This document shows, in pieces, positions 5,677 through 31,660 of a stretch of 32,595 nt of DNA; position 1 is the first letter of the stretch; the number at the start of each line of letters is the position of its first letter. The notes beneath the pieces are model-generated. The model had not been told where the DNA came from. It saw only the letters and a list, made by a program, of their open reading frames with translations, and ran no database searches. The stretch spans positions 1-32,595 of IMG/VR virus record IMGVR_UViG_3300047561_000635, one strand, 5' to 3'. Source of the stretch: a virus. Taxonomy: Duplodnaviria > Caudoviricetes. Both the position numbers and the translations under genes were made by a program.

Positions 5677-7028
5677 CTAAATTCGGTTAGTTCGCTTTGG
5701 ATTCTCGCGCCACAGAGTTTCAAGTGGGGCAAGCTCAATGCGCGAATTATGCCCCGTTACAGCAAAAACCGGAGGTTTTTCGGGTTCTTTTGGCTTAATT
5801 TCCTGCCAAGCGATGGCCATCATGCGAAACGCATCAGCGCAATGGCTGGTGAAATCGTGCCGTGGCCGCTCGCGGAACATCTTCTTCTCGTCGTCCCATT
5901 CGCGCTGATACTGCTTGAGCAGCTCCACGCCCTCGCCACAGCGTTCGCGGTCAAACCACACGCGCCGCATCATGACCCGCGCTGCCTGGATGCCGTCTTG
6001 CACGCTGAGAGACGGCACGATGGCCATGTGCTTAAGGCCAAGGCTGGCGTCCAGTTGCTCAATGATGGACTTGCCGCCTGATGCCAGCGTCTTGGCCCGA
6101 GCGTCATGCGGCAGATAGTGTGTCGCGTACCGATACGCCTTGCCAATCACCACGTTGGCATAGTCGTCAATGGTCAGGCCCGAGGCCGAGTAGTAGTCAA
6201 TGATCCGCAGCTCGGAACCGGACATCTGCCAGAACCAGATAGCTGTATCGTCGTGGAACCCGAGATCCCAGGCAGTAAACACGGGCAAGTTGCGGTCGTG
6301 ATCCACGACGGTGATGCGGCCTTCGTCCTCGATGGCCCGCAACTCGCGCCCAAAGTACGCACCCAAGATCGCGGCTTCAAAACTGCACTCAAACTCCTGC
6401 TCGTATTGATCCTCGGTCATGCCCCGGCTTGCGTCGGCCAGCTCGTCTGGCTTGATCAGGCCAGACTGACTTGCTTTGATGCTGGTGGAGTACCAATCGG
6501 GCGAGCCTTGAGCCTGCGTCCAGATGCTATGAAAGAAGTTGTGCCCCTTTGGCGTGCCGATAAACACGGCCCAGCCCTCTCTGTCTGCCAACAGCGGTCG
6601 GATGATCTCGCCCCAGACCCTCGGTCTCATATCGGCCACTTCGTCAAGTACGACACCATCCAAATACAACCCCCGCAGGGCGTCGGGGTTGTCTGCCCCA
6701 AAGAGCCTGATGCGCGCCCCGTTGAGCAGCTCAACCCAAAGCTCTGACGCATTGGCCTGAGTGCGCACGTCGGCGGTGTAGCGCAACAGGTAGTCCCATG
6801 AGATGGACTTAGCTTGGCTGTAAAACGGCGCAATGTAGGCGTAGCGTCCGTCTGGCTTGCCGTCCATGAAGGAGCGACGGATGAGGTCGTTGATGCACGC
6901 TACGGTCTTGCCAGCACCCTTCGGCGGTGGGCGACTAAACACGCCCACCGCGCACTCCTATCGTGAAACGCCGCAAACGCCCTGCGAGGCGAATAGGCGA
7001 TTGTTATTCGTCGCTCGGTCGCTGCCAT
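5677..7028 (-). CDS. terL: Terminase large subunit, reading frame interrupted at 6916-6920
   Basis: The main frame (5677..6915) has AGKTV, LRGLYLDGVVLDEVAD (Walker B), FIGTPKG, AWDLG and HCADAFR (RNase H-like nuclease). The natural N-terminus MAATERRITIAYSPRRAFAAFHDRSARWACLVAHRR is in another frame (ATG 7028 to 6921), separated by AGGGT. Confidence 0.9.
6924..6951 (-). other. Perfect 10-bp hairpin just 5' of the TerL frame break
   Basis: mRNA sense GCGGUGGGCG-UGUUUAGU-CGCCCACCGC; the arms are exact reverse complements. Confidence 0.75.
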
Positions 7029-7438
7029 TCGATCACGGTCTTGATTGCAGCGCCATCAACGCCGCTGTGTTCGTGCTTCTGTGTTTCGGCCCAACGCATC
7101 TGAGTCTTTGACCACCAGATCATTGCTGCCGTGTCACCGCCCATTGCCTTTTGAAACAAGGTCTTGCCAATCTGCCCGTTTGCCTTGCCTTTGCCCGTCA
7201 CCAACTCAGCACCAAAGTGAGCGCGAAGAGTGTCAACGTGGATGCCATTTCGCACCAGCACCGCAATCTGGTCAATGGGCAGACCGTAGCCTGAGAGCGC
7301 CTCGACCTGTTTGCGCTCGGCATCGGTTGGCTCAAACTCAGGTCTGCCGGCGCCTTCACGAGCGCCGCCATTAGATTTGCGTGCGTCCTGTTTTTTTACA
7401 ACAGGTTTTTCAATCTTGGTTTGTTTCTTGCTTTCCAT
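7004..7438 (-). CDS. terS: Terminase small subunit
   Basis: Directly upstream of TerL. GGAREGAGRP motif, HTH-like segment, GKGKANGQIGKTLFQKAMGGDTAAMIWWSKTQMRW and HEHSGVDGAAI tail are typical of TerS. Confidence 0.8.
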   Translation of the reverse strand: MESKKQTKIEKPVVKKQDARKSNGGAREGAGRPEFEPTDAERKQVEALSGYGLPIDQIAVLVRNGIHVDTLRAHFGAELVTGKGKANGQIGKTLFQKAMGGDTAAMIWWSKTQMRWAETQKHEHSGVDGAAIKTVIEWQRPSDE

Positions 7439-8663
7439 CTTTTACCTTTGCAAAAAGCATACCAGTTTCTGCATGTGTTGCAATTTTACCTGTGAAGTCC
7501 TGCCAGCGTTTGATGATGACGTCACAGTACTTGGGGTCGAGTTCCATCAGGCGTGCAATGCGACCATTTTTCTCTGCCGCAATCATTGTGGTGCCTGATC
7601 CACCAAAAGAATCCAGCACGATATCGCCGCCCTTAGTGTTGTTGAGCAGTTGATACTCAAACAACGCCACCGGCTTCATCGTCGGATGCTCACCATTGCG
7701 AGATGGCTTATCAAACTCAAGAATCGTAGTCTGCTTTCGATCCGTAGCCCAGAGGTGGCCCGCACCCTCTTTCCAACCGTAAAGGCACGGCTCATGTTTC
7801 CAATGGTAATCTTGCCGCCCCATCACAAGGCTGGACTTCTTCCAAATCAAGCATTGCCGCACTTTCCATCCCGCATCTTGCGCCGCGCCTCGAAAGTTGT
7901 AGCCTTCTGAATCGGCGTGCCAGATGTAGAACACGGCCCCCGGCTTCATCACCGCATCGGCGGCAACGTAGGCGTCCCGCAAGAACTGGCGAAATTGATC
8001 ATCGCCCATTGAGTCGTTTTGGATGGTGAGCTTTTCTTTGGTTCCCCCTTCATACGCCACGTTGTACGGTGGATCGGTCAACCACACGTCAACCTTGGCC
8101 TCACACAGCCTTTCAAGCGCCTCGATGCTAATGCTGTCCCCACACATCAGCCGATGCTTGCCCAGCACCCAAACGTCGCCCAGCACCGTCACCGGCTGCA
8201 CTGGCACCTCGGGCACCGCATCCTCATCCGTCAAACCATCGGTCAACTCCACCGGCATAAGTGCTGCGATCTCTTCGGCGCTGAAGCCCGTCAGGTCAAG
8301 ATCAAAGTCCAGGCCTTGCAACTCGCCCAGCTCCAACGCCAGCATCTCGTTGTCCCACCCAGCGTTCAATGCAAGTTTATTATCCGCCAGAATATAAGCC
8401 CGCTTTTTTGTATCGCTCCATCCTTCGGCAACCATAACCGGCACTTCTTTTATATTAAGTTGCCGAGCCGCCATTGTCCTACCGTGGCCTGCAATAATAT
8501 TACCCGTCTCATCCACCAATATAGGTGTCGTCCACCCCCACTCTTTAATACTGGCTGCAATTTGCGCCACCTGATCGCTGCTGTGCGTTCGCGCATTGCG
8601 TGCGTAAGGCACCAGCCGTTCGATGGCCCATTGCTCAATTTTTTCTGCTGGGTTCTTGCTCAT
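7410..8663 (-). CDS. ParB-like N-terminal domain fused to an amino-DNA methyltransferase (beta class, probably N6-adenine)
   Basis: PYARNARTH..IAGHGR..ADNKL (ParB/Srx domain), then TDPPYNV (motif IV), HPTMKP and VLDSFGGSGTT (motif I). Confidence 0.9.
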   Translation of the reverse strand: MSKNPAEKIEQWAIERLVPYARNARTHSSDQVAQIAASIKEWGWTTPILVDETGNIIAGHGRTMAARQLNIKEVPVMVAEGWSDTKKRAYILADNKLALNAGWDNEMLALELGELQGLDFDLDLTGFSAEEIAALMPVELTDGLTDEDAVPEVPVQPVTVLGDVWVLGKHRLMCGDSISIEALERLCEAKVDVWLTDPPYNVAYEGGTKEKLTIQNDSMGDDQFRQFLRDAYVAADAVMKPGAVFYIWHADSEGYNFRGAAQDAGWKVRQCLIWKKSSLVMGRQDYHWKHEPCLYGWKEGAGHLWATDRKQTTILEFDKPSRNGEHPTMKPVALFEYQLLNNTKGGDIVLDSFGGSGTTMIAAEKNGRIARLMELDPKYCDVIIKRWQDFTGKIATHAETGMLFAKVKDGKQETNQD

Positions 8664-31621: not shown

Positions 31622-31660
31622 TTGAAAAATGCCCCCAAAGCTGTGAGCCTGGGGGCATTT
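31622..31660 (-). terminator. Rho-independent terminator after the capsid/decoration genes
   Basis: Minus strand AAATGCCCCCA-GGCTCACAGCTT-TGGGGGCATTT followed by TTCAA (T run). Confidence 0.75.

Follow-up and report, generated by a model that had tools for sequence, protein, structure and literature searches.

A candidate ribosome hop over a short gap in the Walker A motif of phage terminases and its association with a homing-endonuclease-like cassette

The window analysed here, a stretch of 32,595 nt that represents an entire virus record with portal, head, tail, primase, helicase and methylase genes (40 ORFs scanned), carries a terminase gene (TerL) that is interrupted in its Walker A loop by five extra bases, and these five bases are a real non-coding gap. 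The break is genuine and recurrent and very probably recoded. Judging from sequence comparisons, ribosomes probably hop over it with exact restoration of the native HRRAGKT, which is likely because relatives contain 4-7 extra bases at the same spot, with the same two signals and often beside a nuclease gene. With more reserve, but on the whole in favour, we propose that this essential terminase is made by way of a minimal hop, for which a homing element would have written an SD motif and a hairpin into the synonymous positions of 14 codons, so that the peptidyl-tRNA-Arg would come down 4-7 nt further along, whatever the frame, on an xGU triplet that is not cognate to it, with the split SD as ruler, and that this arrangement is widespread in freshwater phages.

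The samples that match the window best are freshwater metagenomes. The window has one TerL, which is encoded on the minus strand and flanked by TerS (7438-7004) and by a small gene that precedes the portal gene. Its features are as follows, genes with the gap being called gapped and those without it continuous:

7004..7438, minus strand: terminase small subunit (TerS) gene (PHROG 309, E 1.7e-13), overlaps the TerL start, shared with the continuous relative L005
6921..7028, minus strand: TerL ORF1, 36 codons, from the start ATG 7028 up to and including the initial Arg pair (HRR) of its Walker A motif
6996..7003, minus strand: empty site without HNH gene, where gapped relatives have their HNH gene; switch point from L005-like to L001-like DNA in the alignment
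6955..6959, minus strand: internal SD-like AGGAG, 3 nt 5' of the stem
6924..6951, minus strand: GC-rich 10-bp hairpin with 8-nt loop, arms 6951-6942 and 6933-6924, perfect
6946..6948, minus strand: in-stem GTG in the frame of ORF2, 6 nt after the SD motif, possible alternative start in the +5 class only
6921..6923, minus strand: predicted take-off codon CGA (Arg); CGA, CGC or CGT in 43/43 distinct cassettes
6916..6920, minus strand: 5-nt coding gap AGGGT, with the slow codon AGG (6920-6918) and the predicted landing triplet GGT (6918-6916)
6900..6902, minus strand: frame-0 stop TAG, giving a 42-aa product if the ribosome does not hop
5677..6915, minus strand: TerL ORF2, 412 codons, from AGKT to the stop (ATPase and nuclease; PHROG 2, E 7e-36; Pfam Terminase_6C)

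The hairpin lies in the codons for R-W-A-C-L-V-A-H-R, and its last base immediately precedes the take-off codon. The coordinates given in the preliminary description for the ATG (7028), CGA (6923-6921), AGGGT (6920-6916), TAG (6902-6900) and the 10-bp arms all hold, and its statement that there is no canonical XXXYYYZ slippery site is borne out by the sequence, which contains none; the SD-like AGGAG at 6959-6955 was missing from it. ORF2 of the window is 93-96% identical to several continuous relatives, and the closest isolates, with 42-44% identity in TerL, are Methylophilales phage Venkman, Rhodoferax phage P26218 and HTVC010P-type pelagiphages. A GTDB scan for the host returned two matches, both in non-terminase sequence. 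TerS and a ParB/methylase module (7004-8663) are common to the window and L005; L006 and L007, in which TerL is 96% identical to that of the window, possess an unrelated TerS of 85 aa, which points to TerS swapping beside the cassette. Downstream of the head genes, the minus strand of the window contains a perfect 11-bp inverted repeat (31627-31660) that is perhaps a terminator.

Frame 0 from the ATG at 7028 reads ...WACLVAHRRRVLARP and ends at the TAG at 6902-6900 (42 aa), and AGKTV starts at 6915 in a different frame that is open through 5677. The assembly was checked in contigs. In run X1, a possible source of the window, a contig of 8,140 nt with a depth of 28 spans positions 6300-7500 with six other letters and no alignment gaps. 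Contig pieces from X2, which belongs to the sample of X1, and from X3, which belongs to a different study, align across the break in the same gap-free manner, as do contigs of further studies (X8, X17), and the IMG/VR loci L001 and L003 contain the identical five nucleotides.

The break recurs at the same position in other phages. A scan with the pattern WACL[VI]AHR-gap-AGK, which does not require the hairpin, returned 49 viral loci, all of them broken, with gaps of +4 (n=30), +5 (n=13) and +7 nt (n=6) that are bounded by CG...GT in every case. The gap-less version of this pattern is represented by about 870 stretches (an estimate from 9 of 64 parts), of which 120 were fetched and found to be continuous throughout. 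Five of 60 protein-found loci with enough upstream DNA are broken at the same codon (two +5, three +7), and when viral and metagenome contigs were scanned for the hairpin, more distant terminases came to light, along with two +6 gaps (L302, L382) that contain a TAA in frame. From the 119 hairpin loci, 28 were dropped as chance pattern matches without TerL context; rows dropped on this ground are L360, L363, L366, L374, L376 and L406 and, further, L370, L371, L493 and L494. Among the TerL loci with a perfect-core hairpin, 21 of 91 are continuous. The pooled 216 gapped site records, which include repeats between scans, correspond to 43 distinct cassettes and 18 gap types, with gap lengths of +4, +5, +6 (stop-containing) and +7 nt across all scans and no gap of +1, +2 or +3 among the loci collected. 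Because these lengths need all three frames, no single frameshift explains the family. The -1 frameshift that had been offered as a mechanism is therefore not retained for the family as a whole, all the more as genes with a one-residue insertion (HRRxAGKT) number zero in IMG/VR, as against 175 collected loci for the same pattern minus the extra codon.

The gapped genes are diverse and appear to be maintained. The 63 distinct gapped sequences with at least 330 ORF2 residues fall into 30 clusters when grouped at 90% identity and into 10 when grouped at 60%, with identities down to 41%; ORF2 is open at full length over the 30 clusters at 90% identity, and the codons of ORF1 vary with the motif residues kept. 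Ribosomes that do not hop in gapped loci would meet a stop after 1-64 further codons. Each of five gapped records checked, four of them complete, has one TerL. Alleles with and without the gap exist side by side in TerL genes that are 95-99% identical. A quickly built tree of 36 gapped and 70 continuous representatives (106 in all, with gapped rows enriched by design) needs 23 label changes, of which 15 are forced by well-supported branches, and entire supported clades are gapped. The cassettes probably all go back to a single origin. Counts of gaps and signals are therefore not independent trials, and the CG...GT boundary could partly be inherited from a split CGT codon; the weight lies in the positions that remained unchanged while the gap length and the middle bases changed. 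A continuous TerL with SD motif and hairpin, in which the gap is missing and the outer stem pair is broken (L270:1485-1530), looks like a revertant. The literature searched, with few subscription journals and without preprint supplements, contained no match to the terminase-gap family.

Two signals accompany the gap, as seen in three sets of loci that were all collected without requiring the SD motif or the stem. The SD core and an 8-pair stem core occur jointly in 49/49 gapped loci of the pattern set, 39/39 of the HNH-found set and 5/5 of the protein-found set, compared with 0/120, 0/55 and 0/1 continuous loci. Taken singly, GGAG is present in 49/49 gapped and 0/120 continuous genes, and a looser SD core in 49/49 and 39/39 gapped versus 13/120 continuous genes; all eight core stem pairs are Watson-Crick in 49/49 gapped versus 0/120 continuous genes, and a stem that allows G-U is found on its own in 11/120 continuous genes. 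The 28-nt fold has a mean of -20.5 kcal/mol in gapped and -8.9 kcal/mol in continuous genes, without overlap. For the window, the hairpin (48 nt) yields -23.1 kcal/mol (z -3.3), a 191-nt region folds no better than its shuffles (z -0.31), and no conserved structure spanning the gap was found. By itself the hairpin is weak evidence, since the codons for Arg-Trp-Ala and Ala-His-Arg are partly self-complementary anyway, and continuous genes have 5-8 of 10 Watson-Crick pairs at the stem positions; what is non-random is the gap, the perfect stem and the SD motif together. Stem covariation is almost nil, with pairs 2-9 invariant and largely set by the amino acids and pairs 1 and 10 often mismatched. 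Of the idea that frame-breaking insertions recur with a covarying hairpin, the recurrence is borne out by the 43 cassettes; the stem varies too little for covariation to support the structure.

The codons around the gap follow a pattern as well. The codon preceding it is CGA, CGC or CGT in 43/43 cassettes, whereas 35 of 149 distinct continuous genes have CGG, AGA or AGG there. CGA, CGC and CGT are the codon set of tRNA-Arg(ICG) in most bacteria. The next in-frame codon, which would occupy the A site, is TAG, TAA, AGG or AGA in 16/18 gap types and a Lys codon (AAG, AAA) in 2/18; AGG accounts for 43 of the 406 Arg codons in genes of the phage itself, where it is no more than moderately rare. The last triplet of the gap is GGT, AGT, TGT or CGT in 16/18 types, AGA in one and CGG in one. 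Its middle base is G in 18/18 and its third T in 16/18, and both exceptions without T are Arg codons, so that at least two pairs with the ICG anticodon are always possible. A full match (CGT) occurs in 3/18 types, and the GGT of the window keeps 2/3 pairs for tRNA-Arg(ICG), with the mismatch at position 1. The earlier remark that take-off and landing codons are not matched is therefore strictly correct for the window but too narrow for the family. The SD motif of the window is 36 nt from the landing triplet in linear distance and 8 nt with the 28-nt hairpin looped out; closing the hairpin leaves 3 nt between the SD motif and the take-off codon and, across the +4 to +7 classes, 7-10 nt between the motif and the landing triplet. 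The landing triplet never ends in C, though inosine pairs with C, for which ancestry, an unmodified A34 or the GTG made by the T and the next codon are possible reasons. This GTG (6915-6917 in the window) is in the +1 frame with SD-like spacing in 41/43 cassettes and opens ORFs of 5-59 codons; a conserved out-of-frame peptide was ruled out because of these differing lengths and the lack of conservation.

A hop could proceed in the following way. The ribosome would stall with peptidyl-tRNA-Arg(ICG) on CGA while its A site holds the slow codon AGG, whose place is taken by a stop in many relatives. The peptidyl-tRNA would release the CGA, and the hairpin, closing directly behind, would pull the mRNA through. 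The anti-SD would pair with the AGGAG, which is 8 nt from the landing triplet once the hairpin has been looped out, the tRNA would re-pair on GGT via positions 2 and 3, and decoding would restart at GCT to give the native HRRAGKT. The +6 gaps with in-frame TAA (L302, L382) exclude any one-base shift, and a classic hop from Arg to Arg is what L382 and the gap types of +7 that end in CGT resemble. With regard to the product, the N-terminus of L005 was aligned so that HRRAGKT corresponds to GRQSGKS of the P74-26 TerL (LGRQSGKS), with a weak alignment of the first domain and a strong one of the second. The register alone leaves room for a loop longer by one residue, because the Arg would stay in register. 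However, a single deletion would turn the commonest gap, +4, into +3 and end the need for recoding, yet no +3 gap was found among the collected loci or in IMG/VR, from which we infer the native product; the working model is a native sequence produced via CGN take-off and re-pairing on the last triplet. Counting against a hop are the mismatch at position 1 of the window's landing triplet and the Lys A-site codon in 2/18 gap types. Of the three options in the preliminary description, the 5-nt hop fits best, and its broader proposal of programmed recoding in an otherwise intact TerL is supported by the recurrence of gap, SD-like motif, hairpin and codon pattern. A phage-supplied tRNA as reader of the gap was rejected, since the window contains no tRNA gene and a quadruplet tRNA is unable to cover +5, +6 and +7. 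A tRNA-Gln(TTG) gene is located at L495:143-214 in a gapped complete genome (G001), the sole tRNA carrier among five related records.

Other explanations have to be weighed against the hop. Class-specific shifts without re-pairing (+1 for the +4 and +7 gaps, -1 or +2 for +5, read-through or a skip for +6), combined with a P-loop that works with at least one extra residue, are unlikely. Such a residue would leave the Arg in the R-x-x-G-K-T register of the P74-26 TerL, stops and AGG are classic +1 triggers, and ordinary +1 and -1 shifts are stimulated by internal SD motifs (PMC5009743). However, several mechanisms would be needed behind one conserved cassette, XXXYYYZ is absent, the hairpin lies 5' instead of 3', and the linear SD distance is 31 nt, as opposed to 3 nt (+1) and 9-14 nt (-1) in that article (PMC5009743); the zero count for +3, one deletion from +4 and free of any need for recoding, speaks against shifts as well. 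It is distinctly improbable that the gap is removed from the RNA, by a hairpin-driven polymerase skip or by cut-and-ligate processing, and that the ribosome reads a normal message. The end of the hairpin adjoins the site, and excision between the C and the final two bases would yield an Arg codon in 18/18 types, but the SD motif, the stop or AGR codon after the Arg and the restriction to CGA, CGC and CGT would be left unexplained; moreover, the site lacks a repeat on which a polymerase could realign, the gap is not spanned by a conserved structure, and the 40 window ORFs scanned include no RNA ligase.

The SD motif and hairpin could also form a split ribosome-binding site for internal initiation, resulting in a TerL in two pieces or with a new N-terminus, which we regard as very unlikely. 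The layout of SD, hairpin and start is that of T4 genes 38 and 25 (PMC3014915), a GTG follows the gap in 41/43 cassettes, and in the +5 class a GTG in the ORF2 frame is situated 6 nt after AGGAG. In the +4, +6 and +7 classes, however, this in-stem GTG does not share the ORF2 frame, and a start at it would cost the protein the Walker A strand and the Arg; the ORFs that begin at the post-gap GTG, in the +1 frame, have 5-59 codons and are not conserved, and no in-frame start follows the gap. To a similarly slight degree it is conceivable that the gapped genes are dead and the terminase is borrowed from co-infecting relatives, given that continuous relatives at 95-99% identity are common (about 870 continuous versus 49 gapped for one pattern). 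Against this, ORF2 is open in 30 clusters (90% identity), the motif residues of ORF1 and the translation signals are kept, gapped clades are well supported and complete genomes have no second TerL. An artefact of assembly or sequencing at the GC-rich hairpin is hardly credible: although the evidence consists of contigs, the identical gap is present in contigs of several studies and in L001 and L003, which largely disposes of the assembly error considered earlier, the 18 gap types sort by lineage with a codon-level pattern, 21 hairpin-bearing genes are gap-free, and the gap is linked to a gene 80-100 nt away.

That gene encodes an HNH_3 protein of 161-164 aa and sits between TerS and TerL in many gapped loci. 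Where 650 nt or more of upstream DNA was available (53 shorter contexts were dropped), an HNH is directly upstream in 35/64 gapped and 1/121 continuous contexts, and in terms of clusters at 85% identity in 19/24 gapped versus 2/39 continuous; in six mixed clusters, the HNH-bearing members are always gapped. Conversely, 39/40 loci found through the HNH alone at 50% identity or more have an adjoining gapped TerL, and the other 36 of 76 HNH-found loci contain distant HNHs without such a TerL arrangement. The HNH is absent upstream in 29/64 gapped contexts including the window, in which no HNH or GIY-YIG match was found. A GIY-YIG gene similar to LEM-3 lies upstream of TerS in 5/29 HNH-less gapped loci (L085:1125-1715, L093:900-1529, L015, L100, L389) versus 0/108 continuous loci and is possibly a second nuclease carrying the gap. 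Two HNHs beside a continuous TerL (L449:2001-2600 and L142:1592-2107, one with HRRFGKT) may have another target or another form of immunity. Distant HNH relatives (L457-L471; 42-49% over the N-terminal 105 aa) are located about 700 nt downstream of a remote TerL match (26% identity) in 12 loci. A sequence search of the PDB with the HNH gave no matches, and a Foldseek search with its model (pLDDT 64) gave nothing at E <= 0.001, the best being I-HmuI (E 0.096). The distances between HNHs are correlated with those between the TerLs (rho 0.58, 171 pairs). Transfer over a long range is therefore not rampant, and the element appears to be old and to have spread mostly from one close relative to another.

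Occupied and empty alleles occur in near-identical phages (L001/L008, 98%; L107/L132, 99%), and DNA identity between L107 and L132 falls 5' of the gap and recovers 3' of it. In the 45 nt before the gap, the window matches the L068 group, whose terminase is about 55% identical, in 43 positions, as opposed to only 28-29 for its 93-96% identical continuous relatives. The window is L005-like to the TerS stop and then L001-like from about 6996 through the gap, and the X17 contig, which matches the window on either side, has 521 other letters at 6996-7003, the size of an HNH gene; from this size and from L001, the insert is taken to be the HNH gene. Taken together, the data point to a homing-endonuclease cassette and not to the control of TerL dose or the Avs-related motive suggested in the preliminary description. 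The gap cassette is likely the cargo of a homing endonuclease that protects the target site. In mixed infections, the HNH would cut gap-less TerL alleles near the conserved Walker A motif and copy itself, the TerL 5' end and the gap into the cut allele, which the gap would render immune with the protein unchanged; the window would have kept or received an immune allele without the nuclease.

To our knowledge, the natural cases of programmed bypassing in bacteria and phages are gene 60 with its homologues and three terminase genes of Streptomyces. The gap family adds 43 natural cassettes in 18 gap variants, which at about 50 nt each are small enough for full mutagenesis in a standard reporter, which makes it possible to test the minimum signal for an efficient bacterial hop, the sufficiency of two-out-of-three re-pairing and the 5' hairpin as motor. 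On the practical side, TerL is a standard phage marker gene and is called truncated or wrongly started in gapped genomes. If the proposal is true, the family would be a second, independently evolved mobile element of nuclease and bypass after MobA/gene 60, and bypassing would join introns and inteins as a third general way in which homing elements can occupy conserved genes.

The bypass of T4 gene 60 is carried by the MobA homing-endonuclease element, for which recent gains, loss of the nuclease but not of the gap, replacement by GIY-YIG genes and a gap that blocks nicking are reported, and the cassette was called unique and its origin a puzzle (Manning and Atkins, bioRxiv 10.1101/2022.08.31.505936). 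The gap family resembles it in the free-standing HNH gene with an element-borne piece of the host gene that ends in the bypassed gap, in alleles with and without the element in near-identical phages, in a gap that outlasts the nuclease, in the stop or AGG after the take-off codon, in the SD motif and in the GIY-YIG gene of some nuclease-less copies. As in gene 60, a genomic non-coding gap interrupts a conserved coding sequence and is absent in relatives, and a stop or hungry codon follows the take-off codon in 16/18 types (AGG in the window); as for MobA, an endonuclease lies beside the gap in relatives, although the HNH is absent from the window, and occupied and empty alleles in near-identical phages show an element ending at the gap. 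In contrast to gene 60, take-off and landing do not share a fully matched tRNA (CGA/GGT with 2/3 in the window, CGT in 3/18 types), and the take-off codon is not contained in a stem-loop, the stem ending at 6924 and resembling the 5' stem-loop, which acts as motor in the current model of gene 60 (PMC5009743; bioRxiv 2024.12.09.627546). The SD of gene 60 is 5-7 nt 5' of the landing codon, compared with 36 nt linear and 8 nt with the hairpin looped out in the window. MobA targets the topoisomerase II large subunit and comprises 269-279 aa, whereas the gap family targets TerL with an HNH of 161-164 aa.

For the Streptomyces phage phiHau3, TerL bypass was shown by MS in E. coli with a UAA variant, and gaps of this type were found in 3/100 Streptomyces ter genes (Antonov et al., 2023, PMC10732093). 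Common to both are a short gap in the P-loop region of the terminase (10 nt at KGWG|KD in phiHau3, with 7 nt in a prophage), a 5' stem-loop, a flanking SD, a slow-codon trigger and the argument of an insertion-intolerant junction. However, phiHau3 has a different TerL family and host, and its trigger is a bldA-dependent UUA with a proposed role in lysis/lysogeny and no link to a nuclease in the sections covered, whereas the gap family comprises 43 cassettes in all three frames with Arg take-off, and its A-site codons are TAG, TAA, AGG, AGA, AAG or AAA in 18/18 types, without UUA at the 5' end of the gap. The byps of Magnusiomyces mitochondria and synthetic stop-hops are similar in their imperfect matches, two-out-of-three pairing and hopping over a stop or unused codon, but the former involve mitochondrial ribosomes and 27-55 nt without an SD and the latter are synthetic constructs (PMC5009743; bioRxiv 2022.08.31.505936). 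In T4 genes 38 and 25 a hairpin shortens the SD distance from 22 to 5 nt and from 27 to 11 nt, comparable to 36 to 8 nt in the window, but their split site serves initiation, whereas that of the window is predicted to set the landing in elongation (PMC3014915). The gap family works like a gene 60/MobA cassette, is placed where phiHau3 bypasses and is a member of neither.
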